From the sequence record NC_106597.1: DNA of 64,000 nucleotides; one strand, 5' to 3'. This stretch comes from Escherichia phage BB1. The notes under the pieces are model-generated. The model saw only the letters and a list, made by a program, of their open reading frames with translations, had not been told where the DNA came from and searched no databases. Below are positions 6,646 through 58,443 of the stretch, in pieces. Made by a program: the position numbers and the translations under genes. Each line of letters opens with the position of its first letter. Position 1 is the stretch's first letter.

Positions 6646-6671
6646 TAGTCCTAAATAACTGAGGAGCTACT

Positions 6672-7001
6672 ATGGAATATGTATATATTTATGCGGATGT
6701 TCCAGTGTATGATAGTATAACACACAAAGAGGTTAAACTAGAGCGGTTTACAACACTGGAGTCCCTTAATAAACGAAAGAATTTCCATTTATTTGGTGAT
6801 CCTAAATTACCTGCATCTTATATTTACTTTAAAGTAAAAGATACAGGTCAAGAGGTATACCTAACATATGATTGGGCTGTTGTAGAAAATACTGAGCAAT
6901 CTATGAAAGCGCTAGATGCTTTTCTGCGTATAGATGAAGAATTTCGGGTACTAGAAAAGCAGCGCAATGAAATGCGTAAATTACTTCACACCTATAAATA
7001 G
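6672..7001 (+). CDS. hypothetical protein
   Basis: ORF with GAGGAG RBS. Confidence 0.5.
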   Translation: MEYVYIYADVPVYDSITHKEVKLERFTTLESLNKRKNFHLFGDPKLPASYIYFKVKDTGQEVYLTYDWAVVENTEQSMKALDAFLRIDEEFRVLEKQRNEMRKLLHTYK

Positions 7002-7004
7002 TAT

Positions 7005-7033
7005 TTGCTATTATCCCAATATTTTGATATAAT
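7005..7033 (+). promoter_or_regulatory. sigma70-type promoter upstream of DNA polymerase
   Basis: -35 TTGCTA 7005-7010, 17-bp spacer, -10 TATAAT 7028-7033. Confidence 0.6.
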
Positions 7034-7094
7034 ATATTGGTAAGTTAGAGAAGAAACACTGAAGTTATACTTACTTACCAAGAGGAGATTAAAT

Positions 7095-9662: not shown

Positions 9663-10152
9663 TTTCAAATTGCCCGTATATGCTTTACGGGCGTTTGTAT
9701 CAATTGAGCAAGAAGGTGATTATTCCGTAATTACAACAAGATATAATAAATATGTGCTAGATAATAGGAAGTTGCCTGGCACATTTTCTCAACGTAGGCT
9801 TATTCTATTTGAGAAACGGAAAGAATTACCATACAAGCTCTATCCTATTAGAGGTAGAATATCAATGTTGTCCCAATTAGTTGGGTCAAAGCGTAGCCAA
9901 TTTATAGATTCTGATGGAAATCTTATTAACTGGAAGAAAACTACGTTCTATGATGTTGTCACCTCTAAAGTTTTGCATTCAGCTAGAATCTATAACGGAA
10001 AATACCAATGCTATGTAGCTAAAGTTCCATATCCATTTGTATTATCCTATGTTCCAGCTTATATAAGCTATATTCTGGTAAATAATAGCCCTGTTATTTA
10101 TCAAGTCCATCAAGAGGAGCCTGAAATTCCTAGACTTAGAATAAAATTATGA
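9655..10152 (+). CDS. hypothetical protein
   Basis: GTG-initiated ORF overlapping the polymerase stop; AT-rich codon usage. Confidence 0.4.
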   Translation: MLNFKLPVYALRAFVSIEQEGDYSVITTRYNKYVLDNRKLPGTFSQRRLILFEKRKELPYKLYPIRGRISMLSQLVGSKRSQFIDSDGNLINWKKTTFYDVVTSKVLHSARIYNGKYQCYVAKVPYPFVLSYVPAYISYILVNNSPVIYQVHQEEPEIPRLRIKL

Positions 10153-13786: not shown

Positions 13787-15605
13787 GACACTAAAATTTA
13801 GTAACGTTATGTCTTACGGTAAGGACATCGTAATTCATTTCGATAAGAATCCAGTTACTCAACTAATTGGTGGCAATGGGCTAGGGAAATCCACCATTGC
13901 TACTGTTATTGAAGAACTATTTTATAATAAGAACTCACGCGGTATTAAGAAAGATGCTCTGTTCTCTTGGTCTTCTCCGAAAAAAGAGTATGATATGCAC
14001 GCTTATTTCTCGAAAGATGAAGATGAGTATGAACTGCATAAAGTAGTTAAGTCAACTGCTAAAGTAACTCTTATTAAGAATGGGGAAGATATTAGTGGAC
14101 ACACGGCAACCCAAACATACAAGATGATTGAAGAGATTATGGGTGGTGACTTCCAAACATTCACCAAACTAATTTATCAATCAGTGGGTTCCAATCTAGA
14201 CTTTCTAAAAGCAACAGATGCAACACGTAAGGCTTTTCTTGTTAACTTGTTCAATCAAGAACAGTACAAAGAAATGTCAGAAACTATTAAGGCTGACCGT
14301 AAAGAAATAGCAAATACCTTAAATAATTTGCAGGGCCAAATGGCTGTAATTACGAAAATCCTTAATGGAAAGAATAACTTGGGAACCTTACAAGAACCAG
14401 TCGAAGTGCCGGAGTTTGATGAAGAGCCATTAGCACAAGAACTTACTGAATCGAAAATTAAGGCGGCATTAGCCAAGTCTCAAGAGGCTAATATTACTAA
14501 ATTGCGTAATTTGGACAAAGCTGTACAAGTTGCCGAACAATCTTTCGAGCCTTTTAAAAATTTGCCTGCGCCCACTGACCAAAACGAAGAGATCTCAAGT
14601 GTTACGCGTGACCTAACGATTGTGACCTCACGTGCGGGCGAAGTTAAGAAACGTTATCAGAAGTTCAAGCAAGAGGCTTCAAATACTGAATGCCCTACCT
14701 GTGGTACTCATCTAGATACAACTGCTGCTCAAAAAGCAATGGATATGGCTAGAACAGAATATGATCCTCTGTTCAAAGAGAAGCAATCTCTTGAAGCTAA
14801 GCTAGAACAGTTGAAGAAAGAACAACTTGAGTATGTTGCGTATACTAGAGCAAAGGATGCTTTGGATAAAGCAGTGGTAGCTAGAGACGAGTTCAAAAAT
14901 TCAATGAGTGATGCTTCTTTTGAAGAACTCAATGTGCAAATCCTACAGGTGCAAATCCGACAATTAGAACAGGAAATCGCTGATGGGCGTTCTAAGGTTG
15001 CAATTGCTAAAGAACATAATGCAAATGTTGAGTTAGCCAATGCAAAATATAAAGCGAAACTAGAGCAGATTGAGAAAGCTGAAGCAGAAATGTCCGAGAT
15101 TACTTCTAAACTGGATGGAGTATCCGAAGCTGTTGCTGATCTCGATATTCTGATTGCTGCATTAAAGAATCTAGTAGGGTATAAACTAGAGCATAGTGTG
15201 AAAGTATTTGAAGAGCTAATTAATAAATACCTTTCAATTATGACTGGTGGTAAATTCGCACTTGGATTTGAACTTGATGAAACAAAATTACAAGTAGTAA
15301 TCTTCAATGATGGAAACCGTACCAGTATGGAGAACTGCTCTACTGGTCAGCAAAGTCGAATTAATCTAGCAACCCTGTTAGCTATTCGGATGCTGTTAAC
15401 ATCTATTAGTAAAGTTAATATTAATCTTCTATTCCTTGATGAAGTAATTAGCTTTATTGATACAAAAGGACTTGATACTCTCGTTGAACTATTAAATGAG
15501 GAAGAGAGTCTAAATTCTATCATTGTTTCTCATGGGCATACGCATCCACTAGCTCATAAGATTACTGTCAAAAAAGATGCAGAAGGATTTTCCTACTTAG
15601 AATAA
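13767..15605 (+). CDS. SbcC/Rad50-like ATPase
   Basis: Walker A GGNGLGKST; long coiled-coil; central CPTCG zinc hook; C-terminal LLFLDEV; start moved to Met26 of track ORF. Confidence 0.75.
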   Translation: MSKITIKTLKFSNVMSYGKDIVIHFDKNPVTQLIGGNGLGKSTIATVIEELFYNKNSRGIKKDALFSWSSPKKEYDMHAYFSKDEDEYELHKVVKSTAKVTLIKNGEDISGHTATQTYKMIEEIMGGDFQTFTKLIYQSVGSNLDFLKATDATRKAFLVNLFNQEQYKEMSETIKADRKEIANTLNNLQGQMAVITKILNGKNNLGTLQEPVEVPEFDEEPLAQELTESKIKAALAKSQEANITKLRNLDKAVQVAEQSFEPFKNLPAPTDQNEEISSVTRDLTIVTSRAGEVKKRYQKFKQEASNTECPTCGTHLDTTAAQKAMDMARTEYDPLFKEKQSLEAKLEQLKKEQLEYVAYTRAKDALDKAVVARDEFKNSMSDASFEELNVQILQVQIRQLEQEIADGRSKVAIAKEHNANVELANAKYKAKLEQIEKAEAEMSEITSKLDGVSEAVADLDILIAALKNLVGYKLEHSVKVFEELINKYLSIMTGGKFALGFELDETKLQVVIFNDGNRTSMENCSTGQQSRINLATLLAIRMLLTSISKVNINLLFLDEVISFIDTKGLDTLVELLNEEESLNSIIVSHGHTHPLAHKITVKKDAEGFSYLE

Positions 15606-45678: not shown

Positions 45679-45843
45679 TTTGGAAATCTCGAAATTTCAT
45701 AAGATTACACATGGAGGTGTGCCCAGTGGGTCGGGGGAGAATACTTAGTCTGCTAACCGCCACCCCCCGTTACTATTAGCAGGGTAATTGTTTCATCCTG
45801 CAACCATTTTAATCGCAGGATGAAATTATTTCAACTTTAATTA

Positions 45844-46578
45844 TTACGCAACTTTTAATTTCTCAATATATTGTTGCGGGCTGCAACTATATTCTGCGCG
45901 TTCTTCCTCGGTCATACCTTCCCAGCATAGTTTTAAACGGTCAGCTAGGAATTGATAATCATTATCATCGTCGAGCGATTCATCAATAAAGGTTTCACCT
46001 ATTAATGTTACACCTATTGATAGAATATCATTAACGGCTTGCGCGTCCAGCGTTTTAAATCCGTATGATGCTGCCGCCGATAGCACACCTTTATGATCAT
46101 CAATCATTGTAAAATCAGCGTTCGGATATAACTGTTTAAATAATTCAAAATAATAAGATTTATATACTGCGTCTTTGCTGTGGTATATTTCGCTAACTTT
46201 ATCAGCTTTAAAATATTTATGCAGTGTGTCGCGGGAAAATACGCGGATATTGCTATTTCCTCGACCTCGCAAGCCTTGTTTGCGCAAGAAATAATAGTCC
46301 GACTTACTCATCAATCGAGCGGTGCAAATAATGTTTAAAGTATTTGCATCATTCATGCACTGGCGCATATATTCAACCAATGGCAATAAAGTATCTTGCA
46401 TTATTAAATGATGTTTGCAGGCTTCATTTTTATATTTATTTAAATCTAAATTGCCCTCATTATCAAAGCAAGGCGCTACACGATGGAAAGAATTAACGAT
46501 AGTGCCGTCTAAATCCCAAATCATGACGCGGGAAATATGCGGGAAATTACGGAAAGAATTAATAATAGATTTATTCAT
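45844..46578 (-). CDS. dmp: HAD-family 5'-deoxynucleotidase (Dmp-like)
   Basis: HAD motif I near N-terminus (MIWDLDGTIVNS); 244 aa; GC-richer codon usage. Confidence 0.7.
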   Translation of the reverse strand: MNKSIINSFRNFPHISRVMIWDLDGTIVNSFHRVAPCFDNEGNLDLNKYKNEACKHHLIMQDTLLPLVEYMRQCMNDANTLNIICTARLMSKSDYYFLRKQGLRGRGNSNIRVFSRDTLHKYFKADKVSEIYHSKDAVYKSYYFELFKQLYPNADFTMIDDHKGVLSAAASYGFKTLDAQAVNDILSIGVTLIGETFIDESLDDDNDYQFLADRLKLCWEGMTEEERAEYSCSPQQYIEKLKVA

Positions 46579-46657
46579 TTGTTACGTTCTCCATTAAAGG
46601 GATTTAGTTATTTCAGCATTACCCGCTATTTATAAGCGGGTAATAATAAATTAACTA

Positions 46658-47053
46658 TTAAAGACCATAAGCCAACGCATCGGCAATAAAACTAACATCC
46701 TCACCTGATACGCTGGAACGAATACCAGCACAAGTATATACTTTTGCACTGATCAATTGATCATCAAGGCAAGCGGGGCAAGGCGCGACAACTGCAAAGG
46801 CAAGGCCGGATTTTACGGCGTCGATGATAATCGTTTCTTGCTTCACCGTATCAACATAAACACCTTTTGCTTTAATATGACTGGTTAGTTTGCCCTGCGT
46901 ATATGCGAATGTTGTAACCTGTAAAGCGTCATTGAAATCTAATAGATCATCAATAACATGCCCCGCCTCGACGTGGTAACGTTCGCCGTTAGAATAAACC
47001 AGAACAATTGAGGATTGAGCGCGGTCAAATGGGATGCGATTAGATTTAGCCAT
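46658..47053 (-). CDS. pre-early hypothetical protein
   Basis: 131-aa ORF with GGAG RBS; preceded by GC-rich hairpin. Confidence 0.5.
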   Translation of the reverse strand: MAKSNRIPFDRAQSSIVLVYSNGERYHVEAGHVIDDLLDFNDALQVTTFAYTQGKLTSHIKAKGVYVDTVKQETIIIDAVKSGLAFAVVAPCPACLDDQLISAKVYTCAGIRSSVSGEDVSFIADALAYGL

Positions 47054-47089
47054 GTTTATAACTCCAGTTATTTTAATAAGGAATTTAAT

Positions 47090-47347
47090 TTATTTGATAA
47101 TAATCTGCATTTGGTACGGCGTTAATTCACCGTTTACGGGTAAATTATTATCACTCAACCATTCATAAAAAGCGTCATCATCATCAAAAGGAACAACATC
47201 ATTATCACGATAATCGACCGTAATAATACCATCAGTATTAGTTTTAGCGGCTAGGATAGGCCCGAAGCTGTAAACTTTATCGGATTCCATTTCATCCGGT
47301 GAAATGAATGCTTTTTCGTCCAATGTTTTGGGTAGTGTAACTTTCAT
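47090..47347 (-). CDS. pre-early hypothetical protein
   Basis: Start moved to ATG 47347 (AGGAG 7 nt upstream); track ORF begins at TTG 47380. Confidence 0.45.
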   Translation of the reverse strand: MKVTLPKTLDEKAFISPDEMESDKVYSFGPILAAKTNTDGIITVDYRDNDVVPFDDDDAFYEWLSDNNLPVNGELTPYQMQIIIK

Positions 47348-47401
47348 TTTTTGACTCCTGTAATAGCGGCTATATTTCAAGCCGCTAGGGGAATAATTTA
47401 A

Positions 47402-49066
47402 TTATGCGAAGAATTTACCATTCTTAAAGTCGATCAAAGTACGCTGACCGTTTGCATAGGTAATTAAATGCGTTTGCGTCCAGCTTGACGCGCCAACGTT
47501 GTAACCCATATCCAGACTACCAGCTACTCCAGCGGTATAAACGCCACCGTAAATGCTAGCGGTATGGGTGTGTCCCGTGTTTAGCTTGCCCAATTTCTTA
47601 AACTGTTTAGGATTGCCACGACTGCCGTTAATGCCGTTGTGACCGTGTACACCGCACTCAATGCCTGCAATCTTGAAAGATTGGTCAGTGGTTAGGAAAA
47701 TGGCGTTAAACTCACAACCTGCAACCTTGCGCAGCGCATAATCTAGCACGTTAAAAGTATCATCATGATCACTGATCGCCGCGTAAATTGCAGCATTCAG
47801 GCGGTGATATAGTTCGGCGTTGGCTGGATCGTCTTTGATGTTAGCATTACGATCATCTAACCAGCGGGATAGCGCCAAATCGTGATTAGATTCAACAATG
47901 ATTGTTTGAGAGAAATCACGTTCCATTGATTCCAGCACGCGCCCCGTATCGATAAGATCATCCAGAACTTTATCACGTCCAGCGGCATACTGTTTTGCTA
48001 GGAATACACCGGATGCACGGTTATGATGATTGCGCGATGTAAAATCATGCACGTCATGAATAAACTGATATTTAGGTTTAAGAATATCAAGCAAGCTATT
48101 TTCGCCAGCCCATGACGCAACGGCACAATCATCATCTAATTTTTCGGCGTGAATATCGCCATATTGCAAGCCTAAAACATGCCCCGACGTTTCATAGCAT
48201 CCAGCAGGAGTAGCGCAAACATTCAGATCATAAAACACCCCGCTTTCATCCATCGTTTCAAGCTGGCGAACAAAAAATTCCCCGTCGTCGTCGAACTCAA
48301 CAATAAGCGCACCGAAGTTATGCAGCGCCTCGGCCTTTTGTCCTGCTTTCTGCTGAATGTAGTTTTTGAGCGTTGCCGTTCCGGTTGAATACATACGGCG
48401 CACTACTTCACCTTTTAAAGCTGGCACGCTTTCAGCGGTAATTTTAGCGTGACCAATTGCCAGCCCTTCAATATTTAAAGCCGTTGCAGTTTCTGCAAAT
48501 CCTGAAAGCGGATAGTCTGCGGTAGGCAAAACATTAATTTCAGCCATGAAAGCAAAACGGCGGTTATTTAAAAACACGTTTTTGCTGCAAATATATTTAT
48601 CAAATGCGGGATCGTATTTGATACCGTCTGCACCTTCTCCATTCTGGAAGCCGTTTTTATTATAAATATACTTAGAAACAAGCAAATCAGCACCGATATA
48701 TTCAGCGAATTTTTCCAGACTTGCTAAAAAGTTTTTATGTGGGAAAGTATTATTCTGAATCGACGTAATAATAAAGCGTTTACCCTGTTTTACTTCCCAT
48801 TGCTCAACCGTACTAGAAACAATCCCCGCCGCTTCTGGGCGCTCATCGTTTTTAATGGCTTTTGCTACTTTTGCCGCTTTCGGTTTAGCTGGTTTATTTG
48901 CTTCCAGCCAGTCGCAGATAGCGGTTGAATGCTTCGTTGTATCGTAGACCGCTTTTGATATATCGTCGCAGACTTCCAGTTTAGTAGCGCGCAGACGTTT
49001 ACCATAGAAATTAAAGTCAGCGGCCATTTTCAGGATAACGGTTTGTTTTTCTGCGGAAATAATCAT
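47402..49066 (-). CDS. A1: A1-like pre-early protein with metallophosphoesterase motifs
   Basis: 554 aa; GDIH, SNHD and GHTH motifs in calcineurin-like order. Confidence 0.65.
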   Translation of the reverse strand: MIISAEKQTVILKMAADFNFYGKRLRATKLEVCDDISKAVYDTTKHSTAICDWLEANKPAKPKAAKVAKAIKNDERPEAAGIVSSTVEQWEVKQGKRFIITSIQNNTFPHKNFLASLEKFAEYIGADLLVSKYIYNKNGFQNGEGADGIKYDPAFDKYICSKNVFLNNRRFAFMAEINVLPTADYPLSGFAETATALNIEGLAIGHAKITAESVPALKGEVVRRMYSTGTATLKNYIQQKAGQKAEALHNFGALIVEFDDDGEFFVRQLETMDESGVFYDLNVCATPAGCYETSGHVLGLQYGDIHAEKLDDDCAVASWAGENSLLDILKPKYQFIHDVHDFTSRNHHNRASGVFLAKQYAAGRDKVLDDLIDTGRVLESMERDFSQTIIVESNHDLALSRWLDDRNANIKDDPANAELYHRLNAAIYAAISDHDDTFNVLDYALRKVAGCEFNAIFLTTDQSFKIAGIECGVHGHNGINGSRGNPKQFKKLGKLNTGHTHTASIYGGVYTAGVAGSLDMGYNVGASSWTQTHLITYANGQRTLIDFKNGKFFA

Positions 49067-49156
49067 AGTAATAAAACTCCATTAAAGGGATTAGATTAAT
49101 AACGGCAATATTGCCAAATATAACGCCTCAAATAATAGGCGTTATAATTTGCAACA

Positions 49157-49354
49157 TTAATTTAAAGGCACTAGGCTAGAACTAACACCACAAGCAACGG
49201 CAGCGATAAAACAAAGCAAGCCCAAACGTTTTGCTAACTTAGATTTACGTTTAAAATAATATGAATCTAAATCATTTTGAAAATAAGCAAATAATAATGA
49301 GGCCGCCATAATAAACAAGCCTAGAATTAATGATTCAGTAGGAAAGAAAATCAT
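49157..49354 (-). CDS. small membrane protein (two predicted TM helices)
   Basis: 65-aa ORF with conserved upstream RBS element. Confidence 0.4.
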   Translation of the reverse strand: MIFFPTESLILGLFIMAASLLFAYFQNDLDSYYFKRKSKLAKRLGLLCFIAAVACGVSSSLVPLN

Positions 49355-49445
49355 TTTTTAAAACTCCTGATTTAAGGGAAGAAAATAACTATCGCTAAAC
49401 AGTTATATTATTGCCCCCTCACTAAAAGGGGGCAAGGTATAACTA

Positions 49446-49853
49446 TTATTCGCCTGCGGCTTGTTTTACTTCATCGGCAACGCCTAACAGTTGCGCTACT
49501 GCGTCCAGCGTTTCAAGTTTTGCACTTTCCAGACTTGCCAGATCGTCGGCGTCTTTGATAATGCCGGAATCAATAGCATGTTTAGCGATAACGCGCACAT
49601 AGTGAGCTTTACGCACAGAGCTACCGCCACCAACTTTACGCGGCTTATCGCTTTTTTGATAGGCTTTTGCACTGGTCAATTTTGAGCGAACGGATACAGG
49701 GGAAGCCGCGCCAACTGCTTTTGCAATCTCTTTTAAACCGTCGCTATTTGCGAAATCTAAACCGTTTTCATTAATTAACTGCTGATACATGGAAACAGCT
49801 TTCTGAGTGTTTTCTTCATTCCATGCGAATTTTGCGGTTTTAACGTTAGTCAT
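49446..49853 (-). CDS. putative DNA-binding protein (A2 candidate; shares motif with ORFs 300..710 and 3436..4203)
   Basis: 135 aa; basic stretch KPRKVGGGSSVRKAHYVR and HTH-like motif; conserved upstream RBS element. Confidence 0.4.
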   Translation of the reverse strand: MTNVKTAKFAWNEENTQKAVSMYQQLINENGLDFANSDGLKEIAKAVGAASPVSVRSKLTSAKAYQKSDKPRKVGGGSSVRKAHYVRVIAKHAIDSGIIKDADDLASLESAKLETLDAVAQLLGVADEVKQAAGE

Positions 49854-49951
49854 GATATAAACTCCTATTAGTTTAATTTAAGGGATTAGATTAACTTAAT
49901 GTTAATCGTTATATCCCCCTGAAATAAGGGGGATATAAAGTTAACACTAAA

Positions 49952-50203
49952 TTACAGAACAGCTTCCCATTTTTCGTTACGTTGAACAACCTTTACAACG
50001 TCGCCGGATTTAACGCGAACGTTAAAAACAGGTTTGCCGTTGTTACTACGTTCATTTTCAACATATACCGCGTCGATTGTATCAAACGGCATAAGCGCCG
50101 CGCCTTTAATACGTTCGGCCTTTCCGGTTAATTCATCCGTTTTAGTAACGAAAGGAATAAAAACGGATTGACCAATTTTTGGCGCGGTAATAACGTTTTG
50201 CAT
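49952..50203 (-). CDS. pre-early hypothetical protein
   Basis: 83-aa ORF with GGAG RBS; downstream of a large palindrome. Confidence 0.45.
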   Translation of the reverse strand: MQNVITAPKIGQSVFIPFVTKTDELTGKAERIKGAALMPFDTIDAVYVENERSNNGKPVFNVRVKSGDVVKVVQRNEKWEAVL

Positions 50204-50227
50204 AATATAAACTCCGAGTTATTTGGT

Positions 50228-50278
50228 GGATTGTTCCGCATTACCTGCTAGAAAGTAGCAGGTAATAAGTAACAATCC
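50228..50278. repeat. 51-bp compound palindrome
   Basis: GGATTGTT-CCGC-ATTACCTGCTA-GAAAG-TAGCAGGTAAT-AAGT-AACAATCC. Confidence 0.6.
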
Positions 50279-50406
50279 GCTCGCCAGTATAATCGATTTA
50301 AAGAACTCCACGTAGGCCGCTATATCCCAGTTAGGGGGCGGGATGCATTATGGTAAGCACCGACCGTCAAATTTTATCAAGTTATCGCTCTTATCGAACT
50401 GGGTAC

Positions 50407-50435
50407 ATCTTAAAACCTATCGGCTAGGTTGTCAA
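50407..50435 (-). promoter_or_regulatory. candidate sigma70 promoter for leftward pre-early transcription
   Basis: Minus strand -35 TTGACA (50430-50435), 17-bp spacer, -10 TAAGAT (50407-50412). Confidence 0.3.
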
Positions 50436-50635
50436 GCGGTTTTTTGCAGTTTTTTATGATTTTCTTTCAAGTCAATCATAATATTTCGCCAGATCATTTC
50501 TAAACCTTGCTGGCGACCTTTCTTGTACTGCGTGAATCTATATTTTACTGATCTTTGTGCTACTGTCAACAAGTTTTTTGTTTTGCTATCTAGTGCCTTA
50601 ATAGGCTTGCCAGTGATCAAAAGCGTTTGTTTCAT
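50432..50635 (-). CDS. hypothetical basic protein
   Basis: 67-aa ORF, first gene of the leftward operon. Confidence 0.35.
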   Translation of the reverse strand: MKQTLLITGKPIKALDSKTKNLLTVAQRSVKYRFTQYKKGRQQGLEMIWRNIMIDLKENHKKLQKTA

Positions 50636-51082
50636 ATCGTCGATTCCTTATAATGAATAAGTTTACCGCCGATAGGCTTTAAGATGTACCCAATTTTTAA
50701 AGAGCGTGGCGGTAAACTTCCCGCCGTGTAGTTCGTCATTGCCGCCCTACGAAATAAATAATAGGGGATTCCCGAAAATGGCGCAACCTTATTTTTGTAA
50801 AGAAACGTAAAGACACGATCCACCGGACGGCGTGCGGCGACGGCCTAAAATTAAAAGAAACGGGCGCGCGAATACCACAAAACATAGCAAATAGGCAAGT
50901 AATTTTTTCATTTATATTTACTTTGCCCTACTTGACAAAACCTAAAAAGCTCGTGACAGCGATAAACGGCTTATCCCTTTATGATGAGATGGCTAAAAAC
51001 TTCATCGCGTTCTAGGGCGTTTTAGGCGCATTCTAGCCTTGTTGATAACTTATCCCCAGAAGCAAAAATGAAATTTTCCTAG

Positions 51083-51115
51083 TTATCCACTTGACTTTTA
51101 TTTTCCAGTGGATAA
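51083..51115. promoter_or_regulatory. inverted pair of DnaA-box-like 9-mers
   Basis: TTATCCACT ... AGTGGATAA separated by 15 bp. Confidence 0.5.
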
Positions 51116-51398
51116 CTACTTATTTTATAAAATAAATTAATTGACTTTTATCTGTTAGTATGCATCGGAAAGATAGCAGACTAATAATTGCTAGGATGAT
51201 AATCATGCTGGTGGATTGTAACGGCTTAAATTATTAGCAGACTATTAATCACGGAAAATCTCATTAGCCAACTAACTATTTCATGATATATAATATACTT
51301 ATAAATTAATGAGAAATAATAATTATAATAAATAATAACTACAGTAAATAATAACTATAAGAAACTATCGGCCTAAGTGAGAACCACTATCATTTAAG

Positions 51399-51505
51399 TT
51401 ATTCACAACGTTATCCACAGCACAAAATAATTTGACACGATAGGCGGCGATATAAGGACTTTTGCACAGACTTATCCACAGGTTATTCCACTGTATAAAT
51501 ATACA
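51399..51505. promoter_or_regulatory. three direct DnaA-box-like sites plus CTGTATAAATATACA motif
   Basis: TTATTCACA, TTATCCACA (51411-51419), TTATCCACA (51472-51480), motif at 51491-51505. Confidence 0.55.
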
Positions 51506-51773
51506 AGGTAAAAAGGTAGTGTTAACAACTGCAATCAATTTTGAGCGGCCTAAATCGCATTCTAACGAGCTAAACGCTGCGGAGTAATATTAAAGTAAAG
51601 CCTTAATGCGGCGGCCTGGTGGCTTCACCGTGTTTTGCTCTTTATTACACCGCTGCGCGGTTAGCATAAAATTAGACGCTAGGCAAGGAAAATAAAAAGG
51701 TAAAATAATATTTGCCTATGCTAGAAAATTACCTTTATCATTCACTCACCGATTAACGAGGGAGGCCGAACAA

Positions 51774-52769
51774 ATGAGGCTGTATAAACCAGATAACGCA
51801 ACCGTCTTAAAAGGTGCATTGCGCAACCTGCTGGAGGGTAGCAAGTCAACCAGCATTAAACATTTTATTAACAAGGCTGAAACTATTCATCAAAACTTTT
51901 TTGATGATTATGACGGTTATGATATAGATAGTTTTCTACCACTATATAAGCAAGGGGCAACGCTTGTTTTATATAACCGTGATTGCCATATCTTTACAGG
52001 CAGGGGAGCGGGGCCGGATGCCGATTTTATTATTGCGCAGGGCAATAATATTGTTGCGTATCATAGCAATTCAGGCCGTCAATCATTTAATATAAATGGT
52101 TTTGAGCTTATTGGACTTGATCTGATAAATGGACTTTCTAGTATTGAGGGATTTTTAAATGTTATCTGGAAGTATTTACCCGCTGGATGGCATAAGCCGG
52201 ATAATGACGGATCTCAATATACCGCTATAATGGCTTTTGATGGCGACGGTAATTTTTTGTTACCACGGGAGCTATACCCGTATATTTATGATGGGGATAT
52301 TGAAAGCGCTGGTTTTTCTTTCTGGAAAGATGAAGATCAGATTATTGACAGTATAGAAAACCATGCTGTAAATTCTAACACTCAAACTACTGAAAACAAA
52401 GGAAAAAATACCATGACTAAGATTGCTAACATCGTTGCCGCTAATAAATCCGCTGTTGTAAATGCTGCAAAACTGGAGGCGGGTAAAATTGCATTAACTC
52501 AAATCACGAAAGTAGCGGCTAAAAAAGCGCCGTTTATGATTAAAGGTTATATTGATACGCCGATTGGTCGTGTAGTGATCGCTAACCTGCTAAGTGTAGC
52601 GGTTGACCAGTACGCACCGAGTAACCAAAAGGCGAAAGCGGTAGCAGGTGCAGCTATGGAGGCGGCAATGTTGGAAATGGTGCAAAGTTTTAACATCGCT
52701 GAAATGATTGATGAAATGGTAAAAGGTATTGATATTTCTACTTTTACCACTAGCACCGAAAGCGAGTAA
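51774..52769 (+). CDS. hypothetical protein
   Basis: 331-aa ORF with GAGGGAGG RBS; followed by GC hairpin. Confidence 0.5.
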   Translation: MRLYKPDNATVLKGALRNLLEGSKSTSIKHFINKAETIHQNFFDDYDGYDIDSFLPLYKQGATLVLYNRDCHIFTGRGAGPDADFIIAQGNNIVAYHSNSGRQSFNINGFELIGLDLINGLSSIEGFLNVIWKYLPAGWHKPDNDGSQYTAIMAFDGDGNFLLPRELYPYIYDGDIESAGFSFWKDEDQIIDSIENHAVNSNTQTTENKGKNTMTKIANIVAANKSAVVNAAKLEAGKIALTQITKVAAKKAPFMIKGYIDTPIGRVVIANLLSVAVDQYAPSNQKAKAVAGAAMEAAMLEMVQSFNIAEMIDEMVKGIDISTFTTSTESE

Positions 52770-52834
52770 TAATAACTAGCGGGGATTATTTCCCCGCTTT
52801 ACTATTCCCTTGTTAACTAATAGGAGGCTAATAA

Positions 52835-53329
52835 ATGGCTGAGGAAAAATACGGCTTCTCGCTAGGGGAAGTGAGCACGGCTAAACACGATATGATCATT
52901 TTAGTCGATTGTCATACAGGTTATTGCGGAGAAGGTTGGACGGAGGAACATTTTGTTCCTGCTGGTACGGATCTGGACGCTTTCGCTCATGAAATGGCTG
53001 TTGATAATGCTTCTCGTTTTGGTAGCGATGGCTATGAAGACGAAGAAACTGGCGAATGGTATGAAAATGAAAACGTATATGCAAGCCTTTATCATTATCA
53101 ATTAAGTAAATCCGGCACATATGTAAACGGCGGCGATCCTATTAATTCCGTCATGAAATTAATTATTAAACATGGTGGCGTCGAGATAATTGATAACAAA
53201 GCGGTAATATATGCAAACCGATTAAAACAGCTTATTTATATTCCTGATAGTACCCGATGGGAGGAATATGCTGTTTTGCATGACGAATTAAAACGATGTT
53301 TCAATATTGAAGCCTTACAAGTAGTCTAA
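52835..53329 (+). CDS. hypothetical acidic protein
   Basis: 164-aa ORF with AGGAGG RBS; followed by terminator-like hairpin. Confidence 0.5.
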   Translation: MAEEKYGFSLGEVSTAKHDMIILVDCHTGYCGEGWTEEHFVPAGTDLDAFAHEMAVDNASRFGSDGYEDEETGEWYENENVYASLYHYQLSKSGTYVNGGDPINSVMKLIIKHGGVEIIDNKAVIYANRLKQLIYIPDSTRWEEYAVLHDELKRCFNIEALQVV

Positions 53330-53342
53330 TGTAAAGTTTTGT

Positions 53343-53371
53343 AAAGGTCGCCTTTTATGGTGGCCTTTTTT
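53343..53371 (+). terminator. terminator-like hairpin with G-U wobbles
   Basis: AAAGGTCGCC-TTTTAT-GGTGGCCTTT then T-run. Confidence 0.4.
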
Positions 53372-53434
53372 GTTATAATGCCTTTACACCAAAACGGTGG
53401 ATTGAAAATTTTCCCAAAAATTTGGAGGCTTAAA

Positions 53435-53665
53435 ATGGTTGCTTATTCTTCTGCTAGTCATCTGTTTACCGCGCAAGGCTGGGTATCTAATCGTGCTGTC
53501 ATCTATGAAATGGTGCAGGAGTTCGGCATTGCTAAAACCTATAATACCATTCAGGAACTATATAACGCCGATAAAATCGATCAGCAAACGGCTGGCTTTT
53601 TGCTGGATACCCTGAAAGCTGAACATTGCACTAAAAAACAAGCCGCTAAAATTGTTTTAATGTAA
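53435..53665 (+). CDS. hypothetical small protein
   Basis: Start moved to ATG 53435 (GGAGG RBS); track ORF starts 53357. Confidence 0.45.
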   Translation: MVAYSSASHLFTAQGWVSNRAVIYEMVQEFGIAKTYNTIQELYNADKIDQQTAGFLLDTLKAEHCTKKQAAKIVLM

Positions 53666-53714
53666 TTAATAACGGGGCGATACTTTCGCCCCGATAACTA
53701 GGAGGCTATCACAA

Positions 53715-53864
53715 ATGGTTATTTTTCGATCTATTTTAGCGGGTATCTTGGGCGCTATTTTATCGTTATTTGCGATAGCTTTCGGCGTTCACGCTGTTAT
53801 TATTGGCGCTGGCATTGCCGTATTTTCTTATCTGTTAGGCTGCATGACTAGTAAAGGAGAATAA
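53715..53864 (+). CDS. small hydrophobic membrane peptide (49 aa; not in supplied track)
   Basis: ATG preceded by AGGAGG; translation MVIFRSILAGILGAILSLFAIAFGVHAVIIGAGIAVFSYLLGCMTSKGE. Confidence 0.45.
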   Translation: MVIFRSILAGILGAILSLFAIAFGVHAVIIGAGIAVFSYLLGCMTSKGE

Positions 53865-53866
53865 AA

Positions 53867-54079
53867 ATGATTCGTAACGTTTCCCTTGCACGTTCGAAAG
53901 GCTTTAAGCTGGTGGATGTAAACACGTTTGAGCGGGAAGATTGTAAAATCGAATATGTAGCACGTAACAAAAATGCCTTTCGTGTTACCGAGAAAAAATT
54001 CGACAAGCGCGGCAACGTGATAGCTGAAACAGTTAAACATTTTGCCACCTTTTATGCTGCCTTTCGTGGGGTGTTATAA
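53867..54079 (+). CDS. hypothetical small protein
   Basis: ORF with AAAGGAG RBS. Confidence 0.45.
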   Translation: MIRNVSLARSKGFKLVDVNTFEREDCKIEYVARNKNAFRVTEKKFDKRGNVIAETVKHFATFYAAFRGVL

Positions 54080-54080
54080 A

Positions 54081-54425
54081 ATGGTTATTTATGAAGGCAA
54101 TCGCTTTGTTGCTAATTGCCGTCCGGCATTATTAGCAAACTATTTAAATCAGCTTTCCCCAGCCTATAAGGGCGTTATTAATATTTATGAGGGCAAGGCG
54201 CATTATAAAATTAATGCGGTCGTTGCCCGTGAACTAGCGTTTCAATTTTTGACTTTTGCATCTTGTGACGTTCAGGTTATGGGGGAAGCATTAATTGCAG
54301 AAAATGAAGAGGATTTTATTAATATTTTCCGTAAGGTATGCACTGAGCGCTTGATAATGAAAGGCGCGTATATTCAATCAACTGCGGAAAGTATTGAAAC
54401 AGCATTTCGAAAGGTGGCGCAATGA
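54081..54425 (+). CDS. hypothetical protein
   Basis: Start moved to Met14 of track ORF 54042..54425 to remove overlap. Confidence 0.4.
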   Translation: MVIYEGNRFVANCRPALLANYLNQLSPAYKGVINIYEGKAHYKINAVVARELAFQFLTFASCDVQVMGEALIAENEEDFINIFRKVCTERLIMKGAYIQSTAESIETAFRKVAQ

Positions 54426-54491
54426 AATTATATATTTTCGTTGGTAATAGTAAGGCCGCTATTGGCAAAAATATATTTACTAGTGGTTATT

Positions 54492-54686
54492 ATGAGCAAT
54501 AAAATTATTGTTACCAAAACCAGTACAATGGTTGATGTTTTTTACGTTCCCGATACGCCGGAAAACCGACAAGCGGTCGAGCGTGGCGAGTATGATAAAG
54601 TGATTTATGATCACGATGGTTATTATCAACATTTGGTGGATTCCTACGGGGAGGAGGAAAAAATCACGCACCGACTACCAGACTAA
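54492..54686 (+). CDS. hypothetical small protein
   Basis: Start moved to internal Met (MSNKIIVTK); last gene before the repeat block. Confidence 0.35.
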   Translation: MSNKIIVTKTSTMVDVFYVPDTPENRQAVERGEYDKVIYDHDGYYQHLVDSYGEEEKITHRLPD

Positions 54687-54726
54687 TAATCACAGGGCAC
54701 AACTACTAGGAAGTGCCCCCCAATTC

Positions 54727-54751
54727 TCAAATGAGAATGATTCTCATTTGA
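54727..54751. repeat. perfect 25-bp palindrome
   Basis: TCAAATGAGAAT-G-ATTCTCATTTGA. Confidence 0.6.
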
Positions 54752-54944
54752 CCGCGCCCGAGATGGTTAGCCTGCTAATGGTTAGGGTGTTACGTGTCGC
54801 CTTGTGTGATCGTTAGCGAGCTAACCAATTTTTAAGCCTCCTCCAATTTTGCCATTGTTTTAGTATCCCCGCCAAAATTAAACGCGTTAGAATGCGATCT
54901 AGGACGTTTTAACGCTATATTAGAACTATTCACTGCGCAGGAAT

Positions 54945-55053
54945 ACTGTATAAATATACAGTAGGATAAGCTGTGGATAAGTCTGTTAATAACGCCTCAA
55001 AATGGCTAGGATTCTGTCAAGTCAAATCGTGCTGTTAATAAGTCTGTGGATAA
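54945..55053. promoter_or_regulatory. two DnaA-box-like sites in opposite orientation plus palindrome ACTGTATAAATATACAGT
   Basis: Palindrome 54945-54962; TGTGGATAA at 54972-54980 and 55045-55053. Confidence 0.55.
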
Positions 55054-55079
55054 CTTAAATAACAGTGTTTCTCACTTCC

Positions 55080-55260
55080 ATTCTTAAATGCAAATTATTA
55101 TCATTTGTATTTCACTATCTAACTAATAATCATTTCACTTTTTAAATGAGAATCGTTTCACTTCCTGAATAATTTTCATTTCACTTTTTAAATGCGAATG
55201 ATTCTCATTATCATTCCGCTTTTTAAATGCGAATTATTATCATTATCATTCGCATTCAGG
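55080..55260. repeat. degenerate tandem repeats of a ~30-bp unit containing TTTAAATG(A/C)GAAT
   Basis: At least four copies read directly. Confidence 0.55.
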
Positions 55261-55264
55261 CTAG

Positions 55265-55280
55265 CAGGGCAATTGCCCTG
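55265..55280. repeat. perfect 16-bp palindrome CAGGGCAATTGCCCTG
   Basis: Read directly. Confidence 0.6.
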
Positions 55281-55287
55281 CGCTTTT

Positions 55288-55886
55288 GTGCAAATCCGAC
55301 ATTGCTCCATGGGTGTTACGTGCGGGCGTGTATGTGCGAATCCGACAATTTTTGGTAGTGTGCAAATCCGACCCGAAAAATTTTTATAGTGTGCAAATCC
55401 GACAATGAATTTTCCTAAAAACTCCAGCAATCACGAACTGCGTTCGAATCCTGTGGGGTATGTGCAAATCCGACATGGTTTTTCTAGGATTAAGATGTGC
55501 GAATCCGACAAGATTTTTGTGACTTCGATTGGAGGGTGTGTGATTGTGTGAGTTTGGGGAGAAGTTGAAAGAGTGAGAGAAATTTGGGGGAACTGCGGGA
55601 GGGGTGCATGTTTGGTGCGGAGCACCTGATTTGCGGGGATTTTGTGGAAGAGTTGAGAAGATTTGGGTTAATTTGAGATAAGTGCAGATAAAGTAAAATT
55701 TTATTAGCTAAATGGGGCAAAATAGCTTGACAAGTGAAAATTTCTGTGGCTCCAAAAACTCAGGCAATCATGGGCCTTCGGCCCGAAATAATGCTGCCGT
55801 TTTCAGGAGATTATATGTTCCTAAAAACTTAGGCAATTGTGCAAATCCGACCAGTTTTTAAACTCTTGTCAGTGTGCAAATCCGAC
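55288..55886. repeat. eight direct copies of 13-mer GTGC(A/G)AATCCGAC, irregular spacing
   Basis: Copies start near 55288, 55334, 55360, 55391, 55462, 55497, 55839, 55874. Confidence 0.7.
55500..55700. other. C-depleted G/T/A-rich tract (~200 bp) with strong strand asymmetry
   Basis: Almost no C on + strand; GGGG/GTGTG runs. Confidence 0.5.
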
Positions 55887-55926
55887 AGTAATTTCTAGAA
55901 ATGTGTTTTGGAAAAATGTCTTCTAG

Positions 55927-55968
55927 AAATAACCGCCCTCCCAATAACCGCCCTGTATTAACCGCCTA
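55927..55968. repeat. three closely spaced direct repeats (A/T)TAACCGCC(C)T, iteron-like
   Basis: Copies near 55929, 55945, 55959. Confidence 0.5.
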
Positions 55969-56385
55969 TTGCTGGAGTTTCTAGGAATATGAAAACCGCC
56001 TAAGTTGACTAGAGTTTTCCTAGAAACTTAGGAGTCTAGAAGAAAGTGTTGTGCCATCCTAGCAGATGAGCGGCAACAGGTGTATCATCTTGAACACAAA
56101 TATTGCCTTTAAATATTATAAGGTAAATAAAAGTTAATATACCCCCATTTCATGAGAGTTAGTCCCTCTAGGCGCGTGCGATTTGATACATCCTCCTGAG
56201 TCTCGGGGAGGAAGAACAATTGACGAGAACCTGCGAACAGAACCGTCATCAAGTGTTTTCCTACGAGGAATGATGTAAATCTACGGCCTAGAGGTAAAAA
56301 CAAGTTGATGTTTTTAATCTATGAGATTATTATAACACATTATTCTCACGAATGTCAAGCAAATTTCGTTACTTTTAAATTTTCG

Positions 56386-57114
56386 TCATGAGTTTGGAGT
56401 TGGGTAAATTTTTATGCAACCTTGACTTAATAGATATTTTTCTGCCTCTACAGCTTTAATATTGAATATCTCTTTTGCTCCATCGAATTTATAATGATTA
56501 GCAAATTTATTCTCGAAAAATTTATGTGCTTGGTGTTCTATTTTGTAAGCAAGTTCTTTCGATCCTTTCTTGTACTGGTAGATACCAAATACTTCCATAT
56601 CTTCAAAACCCGGCACACGCAATTTATCATACTCTAGATTCTTAAACCTTTGATGTGGCTCTCTAGAAACCCCAATCTTTGTCTTTAATTTCTTCCTAGA
56701 CTGATCTTTATTAGAGAAGATATAGAGATATGTGGGAAATTGAACATCTTCTTCTACTTCCGGTTTCTCGATAGGTGTATTGAGGTTGCTTTCTCTAGCA
56801 CATTGTAAACAACCGTGCCCATCTAGGTGAGATCTAGCAGTTTGCATAAAGTATCCTTTATGCTTATAGCACCATATCTCTACTAACTGATTGGCTGTCT
56901 TATAATTAACTCTTTCATACCCATACTCTTCTTTCTGGACTTTTAAAGCTTTCCTAATAAAGATAAGGTTTAAGGCCTCTTGTTGGAAGTCAGGGTGAAG
57001 TTGCCTAATCTTCGTTATATTAGTAGAGCCATTTGACTTCAAAAAGTTTTTAAGAGGAAACCTCCTGGCTTCCTCGCGTAGCTTTTTATTAATTTCAGCA
57101 CGTAAATCATCCAT
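56386..57114 (-). CDS. hypothetical protein; possible GIY-YIG-like nuclease-related domain
   Basis: 242-aa ORF; weak resemblance (YLYIFSN...KIGVS) to GIY-YIG patterns, plus Cys/His cluster HLDGHGCLQC. Confidence 0.35.
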   Translation of the reverse strand: MDDLRAEINKKLREEARRFPLKNFLKSNGSTNITKIRQLHPDFQQEALNLIFIRKALKVQKEEYGYERVNYKTANQLVEIWCYKHKGYFMQTARSHLDGHGCLQCARESNLNTPIEKPEVEEDVQFPTYLYIFSNKDQSRKKLKTKIGVSREPHQRFKNLEYDKLRVPGFEDMEVFGIYQYKKGSKELAYKIEHQAHKFFENKFANHYKFDGAKEIFNIKAVEAEKYLLSQGCIKIYPTPNS

Positions 57115-57832: not shown

Positions 57833-58443
57833 TAATTACCTCTCTTATCTTCATTAATAGCAGCTCCCAACGCTTCAAGGATAGTATCACTTATACTCCC
57901 AGGTCTAAGATTATTAAAGTGAGTAACATAGAGGGGACTTTTAAAACCTTCAGCATCCGCAGGTGCTACGCTTCGCATATCAGATTCAAAAGCTTCTTGA
58001 GTATGTTTCAACTGTACAGAAGGGCCGTAATCTTCCCCAAACTTATATGACTTCGTACTACTTACCACACCCCCACAAGGAACATTGTGCATATCCGACA
58101 TTAACCTTTTATCGGAGTTACTCAGCATTGAGATTGTCCCTGACTGCCACGGATCTCTAATAGTTACAGGAGTACTAGGACGGTTAACCTCAGCCTTCAC
58201 TAGTTTGTATCCTGCATCGATCAGTGCATTAATCAGGTTATCAGCCGGGATGCGAGCCGTGCCAAAAATCTTACGAGCATCTTCGAGCTTACCTTCAAGA
58301 TCTTTACATGCTCTAAGGTCAGTGTGTGCAAATGTTAGCTTCATAGATTTGAGTTGTATAGTAGCAGTTAAATCTTTAAAGCTATAATCCCATGTGTTCA
58401 GTTCATGGTCTGGTACTACTTGAATAGGTTGTTGTGTAAACAT
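57832..58443 (-). CDS. hypothetical protein
   Basis: ORF in co-oriented early operon. Confidence 0.45.
   Translation of the reverse strand: MFTQQPIQVVPDHELNTWDYSFKDLTATIQLKSMKLTFAHTDLRACKDLEGKLEDARKIFGTARIPADNLINALIDAGYKLVKAEVNRPSTPVTIRDPWQSGTISMLSNSDKRLMSDMHNVPCGGVVSSTKSYKFGEDYGPSVQLKHTQEAFESDMRSVAPADAEGFKSPLYVTHFNNLRPGSISDTILEALGAAINEDKRGN

Follow-up and report, generated by a model that had tools for sequence, protein, structure and literature searches.

The inverted repeats that enclose a group of pre-early genes in bacteriophage T5 are the closest described counterpart of the locus considered here. The GenBank record of T5 (AY587007) annotates inverted repeats C (6022-6060), D (6112-6152), D' (9332-9372) and C' (9424-9462) together with a palindrome D (9330-9349), and the RefSeq record (NC_005859) labels positions 9140-10149, which span the right arm of the repeat, as 'injection stop signal'. 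In a preprint by Davison (bioRxiv 10.1101/866236, 2020), these repeats are treated as 131-bp IRC-spacer-IRD and IRD'-spacer-IRC' elements (Repeat Regions 2 and 3) with eight DnaA/DnaA* boxes, arranged in pairs 3 bp apart with a constant 52-bp spacer and kept in 25 T5-like phages, and the coding region between the arms is described as highly variable. According to the same source, a DnaA box of the T5 stop region was noted in 1987, a second first-step-transfer (FST) band at approximately 5.8 kb, near the left arm, is an old observation, and IRC/IRD are absent from some lineages; in the model put forward there, membrane-bound DnaA on the boxes halts injection (bioRxiv 10.1101/866236). Here, a stretch of 64,000 nucleotides of Escherichia phage BB1 (NC_106597.1; hereafter the window) was analyzed, in which two inverted modules with DnaA boxes bracket a cassette of small genes. 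The DnaA-box inverted repeats as first noted in the window are already contained in the T5 GenBank annotation and in Davison's papers, and nothing is added to them by the initial annotation. The observation as such was confirmed and is statistically sound, and the interpretation given with it holds in part. What is added by the present analysis is the reading of a palindrome in each arm as an operator of the LexA type and the mapping of a published T5 deletion with respect to the arms; the fit of the boxes to the double boxes bound by DnaA in E. coli provides a further handle.

Alignment to T5 revealed that the terminal repeat of a T5-like (Tequintavirus) genome is present once in the window, at about 45,714-55,750 (approximately 10 kb). 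The sequence to the left of about 45,714 corresponds to the T5.159-T5.162 region, which precedes the right repeat of T5 and is joined directly to the repeat, and to the right of about 55,750 the repeat runs on into the early region. The 4.1 kb around the modules showed 92-94% identity to many T5-like phages (window 51000-55090 equals 5283-9744 of phage vB_EcoS_MM-1). Because this identity falls within the left terminal repeat of those phages, and on account of the alignment to T5, modules and cassette are assigned to the pre-early FST DNA of a Tequintavirus. The locus is almost certainly the pre-early 'right operon', with homologues of T5.011-T5.017 and one extra gene, located between IRC-spacer-IRD and IRD'-spacer-IRC'.

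The initial annotation had described the modules as approximate inverted copies of each other of about 35 nt. The quoted sequences were found at their coordinates and the inverted relationship is real, but the size had to be corrected: a repeat search of the window delimited arms of 131 nt (51375-51505 and 54947-55077, 73% complementary) and, in addition, a second inverted segment of 29 nt (51546-51574 and 54878-54906, 83% complementary). Orthology of the arms to those in AY587007 was derived from blastn (78.5% left, 93% right) and from a four-way alignment with the T5 arms. The arms and their parts are as follows.

51375-51505, plus strand: left arm, orthologue of T5 IRC-spacer-IRD (Repeat Region 2), 78.5% identical to T5 6022-6224.
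54947-55077, minus strand: right arm, orthologue of T5 IRD'-spacer-IRC', 93% identical to T5.
51489-51508, no strand: left palindrome CACTGTATAAATATACAAGG, degenerate, 15 of 20 positions of the SOS-box consensus, one CAG mutated to CAA.
54944-54963, no strand: right palindrome TACTGTATAAATATACAGTA (T5 palindrome D), 19 of 20 positions of the SOS-box consensus.
51399-51419, plus strand: double DnaA box TTATTCACA-acg-TTATCCACA, 3-bp spacing.
51460-51492, plus strand: double box TTTTGCACA-gac-TTATCCACA, with a weak third box TTATTCCAC after another 2 bp, adjoining the palindrome.
54961-54992, minus strand: three tandem boxes TTATTAACA-gac-TTATCCACA-gc-TTATCCTAC, the last of which overlaps the palindrome.
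55033-55053, minus strand: double box TTATCCACA-gac-TTATTAACA.
51040-51115, no strand: DnaA-like boxes left of the left arm, back-to-back at 51040/51050 and as an inverted pair TTATCCACT at 51083/51107.
51546-51574, plus strand: second inverted segment, left copy, containing ATCGCATTCTAACG, a motif kept in the flanks of the arms.
54878-54906, minus strand: right partner of the second inverted segment, found by the repeat search.

Each arm (approximately 130-200 bp) follows a fixed order, namely a AAGTGAGAA-type motif, a double DnaA box, an invariant TTGACA, a second double box and the palindrome, and in both arms the LexA-type palindrome faces the cassette. The positions fit those of the T5 arms, with the left arm separating the A2-side operon from the T5.011 homologue and the right arm between the operon end and the DRC/DRD repeats. 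The T5 elements (AY587007 6022-6152 and 9332-9462) resemble the arms of the window in their length of 131 nt, in the pairing of boxes at 3 bp, in enclosing the T5.011-017 operon and in preceding DRC/DRD, and nothing essential differs. The left arm of the window keeps all four boxes, one of which has been lost in T5 (bioRxiv 10.1101/866236), and its palindrome carries the CAG-to-CAA change relative to T5. The right arm forms the inner edge of the injection-stop region annotated in T5 (iss 9140-10149, NC_005859) and is situated approximately 0.7 kb inside the repeat end, after palindrome C (annotated terminator); the distance of the far arm from the inner end of the terminal repeat is 0.5-0.8 kb in the window as well as in T5 and Vibrio phage Ceto. 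A scan of 50500-56400 against Rfam returned no known RNA element, only chance-level matches to mir-3012 (27 bits compared to a cut-off of 90) and HIV-1_SL3. As a separate observation, the motif ATCGCATTCT(AACG) lies next to each arm on the side of its palindrome (51546-51574 and 54878-54906) and recurs in Repeat Region 1 (51010-51035) and in deep-branching relatives (contig L057, 3490-3506).

The sequence CTGTATAAATATACAG, given as part of each module in the initial annotation, is a match to the LexA/SOS-box consensus, which had been overlooked there. Scored over 20 positions against TACTGTATATATATACAGTA (textbook TACTG(TA)5CAGTA), the right palindrome (19/20) is closer to the consensus than the K-12 operators of recA (16), lexA (15 and 14), sulA (17) and umuDC (18) on the same scale. 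The pattern CTGT-N8-ACAG with an A+T centre, by which a LexA operator is recognized, is intact in the right copy and broken in the left copy of the window (ACAA). For comparison, 40 T5-like loci anchored on the A2 gene were fetched, from which 31 unique left and 32 unique right arms were obtained: CTGT-N8-ACAG is kept in 30 of the right and 25 of the left arms, and TACTGTAT-N4-ATACAGTA is kept in 27 of the right arms and also in distant relatives. The centre of the palindrome flips between AAAT and ATTT among relatives, as expected of the symmetric site of a dimer. The palindrome was found beside DnaA boxes in Yersinia phage phiR2-01, Klebsiella Sugarlandvirus, Pectobacterium phage My1 and the Vibrio phages Ceto and D260, with A2 41-43% identical in the Vibrio phages, and both palindrome and boxes were also present in metagenomic contigs with an A1 protein of only approximately 31-35% identity; in the distant relatives that keep the palindrome, the remainder of the arm can no longer be aligned.

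The composite pattern TTATCCACA-N(2-32)-CTGTAT-N4-ATACAG occurred in 82 stretches of viral contigs as compared to 15 in 596 Gb of bacterial genomes. An origin of the combined DnaA and LexA layout by copying from a host regulatory region was rejected, with only those 15 stretches present in the genomes of 185,579 species; at least one of them (L142, a 3-kb contig with two matches in inverted orientation) resembles phage DNA. Boxes for NrdR, TyrR and ArgR, compared by eye, fit the palindrome worse than LexA. In common with gammaproteobacterial LexA operators, the palindrome possesses intact CTGT/ACAG and an A+T centre; unlike typical LexA operators, it overlaps no known promoter and lies in a virulent phage, beside DnaA boxes and at the end of an operon. 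Promoter-like matches over the palindrome are weak, and the known T5 promoters lie elsewhere. A connection between LexA and T5-like phages was not found in the literature searched, including the Davison preprint; the papers of 1987, 2005 and 2015 were outside this search, and priority is therefore uncertain. Taken together, the near-consensus sequence and its retention suggest that the right palindrome is probably bound by LexA.

Exact copies of the box TTATCCACA occur four times in the window and all four lie in the arms (51411, 51472, 54972 and 55045), as compared to a mean of 0.64 in shuffled sequence, where none of 100 shuffles reached four. Allowing one mismatch at most, 11 of 23 sites are located within 51040-55053 (binomial P of 4e-8). 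Tandem double boxes, defined by a spacing of 2-3 bp and no more than three mismatches in all, were detected six times, three per arm and nowhere else in the window (shuffle mean 0.25). The pairs 3 bp apart at 51399-51419, 51460-51480, 54972-54992 and 55033-55053 reproduce the four boxes per arm described by Davison, and four DnaA-like boxes are kept in 24 of the 31 left and 31 of the 32 right arms. The further DnaA-like 9-mers listed in the initial annotation at 51083/51107, 51399 and 55045 are present as well; the inverted pair at 51083/51107 has 15-nt arms that are 93% complementary, and these outer boxes (51040-51115) are kept in a subset of relatives. A DnaA-trio or basal unwinding arrangement was looked for beside the double boxes by eye, and no periodic TAG/TAA pattern was seen.

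In chromatin immunoprecipitation sequencing of E. coli DnaA, 15 of 16 regions contained tandem boxes 2-3 bp apart, often one of them perfect and the other matching at 7 of 9 positions, and a spacing change of +1 bp abolished binding (Stringer, Fitzgerald and Wade, 2024; PMC11317965). The 9-mers of the arms are of exactly this kind (TTWTNCACA as tandem double boxes 2-3 bp apart). They share with the E. coli double boxes, such as those of purH and the low-affinity arrays of oriC (PMC11317965), the same-orientation tandem 9-mers at this distance, and differ in lying on phage DNA, in the presence of two double boxes per arm approximately 52 bp apart, and in that binding of DnaA is predicted only. 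Since the arms hold double boxes of the type used in vivo, confidence in DnaA binding is raised, and host DnaA can be expected with good confidence to bind the arms.

Whether the modules are conserved in relatives and linked to the cassette was a point on which the initial annotation had made its claim depend. On this point the claim withstood the comparison: both arms were found in 39 of the 40 T5-like loci, at a fixed genomic position and 1.85-4.06 kb apart, the fortieth locus being truncated. Left arms are 85% and right arms 89% similar among phages, and left and right arms are 75% similar to each other. Because left and right arms are only 75% alike as compared to 85% and 89% among orthologues, the duplication is, as judged from these comparisons, old, not homogenised and under selection. 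Both arms keep AAGTGAGAA-CACT, a box pair, the invariant TTGACA, the second box pair and the palindrome. Moreover, the near palindrome is strong where the operon runs towards it (Klebsiella phages, My1) and degenerate where the operon runs away from it (T5-like phages, phiR2-01, Ceto).

Based on these results, we propose that the arms of the T5 family act as elements loaded with host proteins, which we consider the best explanation as a whole, at somewhat less than an even chance. Once the FST DNA is inside the cell, host DnaA would occupy the double boxes as dimers or as a short oligomer, a host LexA dimer would occupy the palindrome, and the two would form a tight nucleoprotein barrier or anchor. 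The complex on the right (far) arm would set the boundary both of the DNA injected first and of pre-early transcription and would thereby represent the proximal portion of the 'injection stop signal', a role suggested by Davison for DnaA alone. The left (near) arm would be an old, partly degenerate and dispensable duplicate between divergent pre-early promoters, and the cassette a variable set of host-takeover genes, several of which may be toxic to E. coli. A role of the arms in a barrier or in arrest is tentatively suggested by their sequence and position. The broader claim that the palindromes are genuine LexA operators and that the whole T5 family (Demerecviridae) loads LexA together with DnaA as a barrier to FST and transcription is doubtful.

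Phage T7 provides a parallel for the first part of this proposal, as its entry pauses once an initial part of the genome is inside and transcription then draws in what is left. Similarly, in T5 an early host-takeover segment enters alone, with a limit defined in cis before the remainder. With regard to transcription, an RNA polymerase leaving the cassette in either direction meets the palindrome first and then the boxes in the same orientation; this order of exit and the relation of palindrome strength to operon direction are weak hints in favour of a direction-dependent barrier. DnaA inside a transcribed region can block elongating RNA polymerase (cited in PMC11317965), and in the asnC roadblock, where the DnaA/DnaA-box complex terminates the asnC transcript (Schaefer and Messer, 1988, cited in PMC11317965), the DnaA boxes lie downstream of a transcription unit as they do in the arms, with the difference that an intrinsic terminator already precedes the right arm.

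A number of points weigh against the proposal that LexA and DnaA form such a barrier. The palindrome may alternatively be bound by A2, the dimeric DNA-binding protein of the phage itself, and proteins bound to DNA in the cytoplasm are no obvious brake on its entry. LexA is not membrane-associated, and to our knowledge there is no case in which it serves as a roadblock to elongation. T5 grows on recA cloning strains, so that cleavage of LexA cannot be required. In the stretch of Vibrio phage 70E35.5a that was examined, a LexA-like palindrome is present and the 120 bp around it lack a DnaA box, and only five lineages underlie the relation of palindrome strength to the direction of the operon. 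Furthermore, deep-branching relatives, metagenomic contigs with an A1 only approximately 31-35% identical, possess one compact motif cluster between divergent operons with no cassette inside (L121, 4816-4962; L055, 2121-2267; L057, 3319-3465), in which two LexA-like palindromes and five or six DnaA boxes are contained in approximately 150 bp next to dmp-A1-A2. This cluster may represent an ancestral state in which the two arms were not yet split, and its layout suggests a regulatory or topological element rather than a stop site. The DnaA stop itself was repeated in 2023 as a hypothesis for which experimental studies are lacking (PMC10644984), and in a PNAS paper of 2026 its role is still worded as 'thought to'.

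A published T5 mutant bears on the individual arms. A phage deleted 'from hegG to 017', in combination with left-hand deletions, is viable and forms small plaques (bioRxiv 10.64898/2026.04.02.716235). Mapping of the junction primers onto T5 placed this deletion at approximately 5393-9081 of AY587007 and 5390-9160 of NC_005859, by which the left arm is removed in its entirety, together with the cassette and the T5.011 promoter, and palindrome C, palindrome D and the right arm are spared. Because the deletion phage is viable, neither the left arm nor the cassette is required under laboratory conditions, which also weighs against the barrier proposal and agrees with the remark by Davison (10.1101/866236) on lineages without IRC/IRD.

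Two other explanations, both of which we regard as unlikely, deserve consideration beside the loading of the arms with host proteins. The first is an operator complex, in which LexA and DnaA repress or time the pre-early promoters from within the arms or by looping, such that the cassette senses the SOS or replication state of the host. LexA operators and DnaA boxes are classical repressor sites. Genes regulated by DnaA are listed in PMC11317965, and the left arm of T5 lies between divergent pre-early promoters (NC_005859 5938-6012, minus strand, and 6411-6489, plus strand), the latter being the T5.011 promoter, which is called experimentally characterised in bioRxiv 10.64898/2026.04.02.716235. 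The single cluster of the deep-branching relatives is likewise situated between divergent operons, and -10-like sequences (TATAAA/TATATT) are present within the palindrome, one of which is used by a leftward candidate promoter TTAACA-16-TATATT at 51525-51498. This candidate, however, is not kept in T5, and the known and predicted promoters miss palindrome and boxes, the T5.011 promoter by approximately 200 bp; in L057, the predicted promoters lie outside the cluster. Moreover, the right arm is located downstream of the operon terminator with no gene beyond it within the repeat. Promoter-like matches in the region amounted to 24 as compared to a shuffle expectation of 16.3, and since these matches are ambiguous and barely above the shuffle level, the operator complex was not adopted as best explanation.

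The second explanation holds that the sites belong to phage proteins: A2 together with A1 would bind the palindrome, and perhaps the AATGAGAA-type repeats and ATCGCATTCT, and release the block or cut the DNA, and the likeness to a LexA operator would be incidental or reflect competition. The pre-early genes conserved across the family are A1 and A2, second-step transfer depends on both, the essential A2 protein binds DNA as a dimer, and a near-perfect 9-2-9 palindrome suits any dimeric protein. In addition, further motifs with no assigned partner are kept beside the palindrome even in the deep-branching relatives. On the other hand, the match to the LexA consensus is exact, with conserved CTGTAT/ATACAG arms around a variable centre, and the palindrome persists while A2 falls to approximately 40% identity, where a co-evolving site would be expected to drift. 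Furthermore, A2 matches no known DNA-binding family, with neither a Pfam family nor a relative in the PDB, and thus has no apparent connection to this site. This possibility is about as improbable as the operator complex.

Considerably less likely than either is a function of the arms as an origin or packaging signal, that is, a DnaA-dependent origin with the iteron-like GTGCAAATCCGAC or a site for formation or recognition of the terminal-repeat ends. The DnaA box clusters adjoin a stretch of 89% A+T at 51280-51360, eight copies of a 13-mer direct repeat follow at 55288-55886, and the 0.5-0.8 kb between the far arm and the inner end of the terminal repeat in T5, the window and Ceto would suit such a signal. 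Against this, mapping by electron microscopy places the origins of T5 near the genome centre and the replication genes are silent during first-step transfer (both cited by Davison, 10.1101/866236), the left arm is dispensable, GC skew over 44-58 kb follows the orientation of the genes alone, and no initiator was identified among the cassette genes. The skew as such is not informative with regard to an origin. An origin, as considered in the initial annotation, is therefore an unlikely role in view of the central T5 origins and of the viability of T5 without left arm and cassette. The idea of a mobile or invertible cassette, with the inverted repeats as ends of a transposon-like or invertible segment, was rejected as highly improbable: the repeats do enclose a segment that varies in genes and in length (1.85-4.06 kb) and the main cassette operon is reversed in some lineages, but no transposase, integrase or invertase domain was found in the seven cassette proteins (Pfam, PHROGs, NCBIfam), the arms are 27% diverged from each other and each is conserved with its orthologue across phages, they occupy a fixed genomic position in all relatives, and Type 2 and 3 phages share almost no DNA homology with T5 in this region, so that no simple inversion is involved (Davison, 10.1101/866236).

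The cassette between the arms consists of seven open reading frames (ORFs) on the plus strand (51774-54686), each matching a phage protein family over its full length. All seven genes predicted in the initial annotation, including the peptide of 49 amino acids (aa) with two transmembrane segments at 53715-53864, were recovered, and the operon with its flanking signals is composed as follows.

51712-51741, plus strand: promoter-like TTGCCT-18-TATCAT preceding gene 1, where the T5.011 promoter is annotated in T5.
51774-52769, plus strand: gene 1, 331 aa, T5.011 homologue (DUF7566; PF24450 E 7e-109, phrog_4263 E 3e-159, full length).
52835-53329, plus strand: gene 2, 164 aa, phrog_6741, an insertion relative to T5 (window 52774-53325 without T5 counterpart).
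53435-53665, plus strand: gene 3, 76 aa, T5.012 homologue (phrog_5145 over its full length; synteny with NC_005859).
53715-53864, plus strand: gene 4, 49 aa, hydrophobic, T5.013 homologue (phrog_5607; note 'two transmembrane domains' in NC_005859).
53867-54079, plus strand: gene 5, 70 aa, T5.014 homologue (phrog_4227 E 4e-50; labelled Ung-dependent AP-site nickase by PHROGs and RefSeq).
54081-54425, plus strand: gene 6, 114 aa, homologue of T5.015 by locus tag (phrog_4379 over its full length).
54492-54686, plus strand: gene 7, 64 aa, T5.017 homologue (phrog_6973; alignment to T5).
54729-54749, no strand: palindrome AAATGAGAATGATTCTCATTT, equal to T5 palindrome C, annotated in T5 as the putative rho-independent terminator that ends the cassette operon.

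Searches of the seven cassette proteins against Pfam and NCBIfam yielded DUF7566 as the only match and no recombinase, initiator or regulator. T5.011 is a single intact gene of 331 aa here and in NC_005859 and is split into ORF011 and ORF012 in AY587007, and T5.016 is absent from the cassette, with a mosaic point at approximately 54460-54485. A 26-codon ORF (MKLYIFVGNSKAAIGKNIFTSGYYEQ) at 54422-54502, which overlaps the stop of the 114-aa gene (ATGA), is a possible eighth cassette gene; it matches the position of the small 'ORF017' of AY587007 and of a coding sequence annotated in phage MM-1.

The statement that the bracketed genes have no recognisable function is outdated. In the 2026 preprint, T5 011, 013 and 015 were toxic in E. 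coli, Gp013 was described as having two transmembrane segments and lysing cells upon ectopic expression, and 015 was again equated with the Ung-dependent nickase of Mahata et al. 2021 (bioRxiv 10.64898/2026.04.02.716235). The cassette comprises homologues of all three, and its designation as a set of host-takeover candidates is fair. The annotation of the nickase is in conflict: PHROGs (phrog_4227) and NC_005859 assign the name to the 70-aa protein with locus tag T5.014, whereas the neighbouring protein of 114 aa (phrog_4379, 'unknown function') is the one designated by the locus tag T5.015 and by the primers used for cloning in the 2026 I2BC preprint (15ATG and 15Stop, which map to NC_005859 8300-8644). 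The mislabelling may stem from AY587007, where the 70-aa ORF bears the number 'ORF015'. Judged from the locus tag and these primers, gene 6 is the predicted homologue of the toxic Ung-dependent nickase of Mahata et al. 2021.

Additional motifs were observed next to the right arm and near the left end of the terminal repeat. The Fur-box consensus GATAATGATAATCATTATC is matched at 16 of 19 positions at 55194-55212, 55229-55247 and 45948-45972, with no other matches of at least 16/19 in the 64 kb (shuffle mean 0.055). Two of these Fur-like sites, GATAATGAGAATCATTCGC and GATAATGATAATAATTCGC (minus strand), lie within direct repeats just right of the right arm, and the overlapping pair at 45948-45972 lies approximately 235 bp from the left end of the terminal repeat. 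Similar sites are present in T5, phiR2-01 (18/19 near the left terminus), My1 and a Klebsiella phage and not in the Vibrio phages. Since the AATGAGAAT motif itself is conserved family-wide, the Fur-like sites may serve another protein. The 13-mer GTGCAAATCCGAC (T5 'direct repeat D'), with its eight copies at 55288-55886 to the right of the right arm, also occurs outside the terminal repeat as a tandem pair at 14934-14961 and as a single copy at 58087-58099.

The halt of T5 DNA entry after 8% of the genome, and its restart, have been unexplained since the 1960s, and the arms are the leading cis candidates for the stop. For these elements, our analysis provides handles in the form of double boxes of the type bound in vivo, a putative LexA operator close to the consensus and kept as far as the Vibrio phages, and a deletion map according to which the left arm is dispensable while the right arm is retained. 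If LexA and DnaA were indeed to build the stop, a virulent phage would be making use of DNA-binding proteins of its host in a novel manner, and two-step injection or pre-early expression would be sensitive to the SOS and replication state of the host. Moreover, the 50-year-old 'injection stop signal' would become approachable by point mutations in combination with lexA or dnaA alleles of the host.

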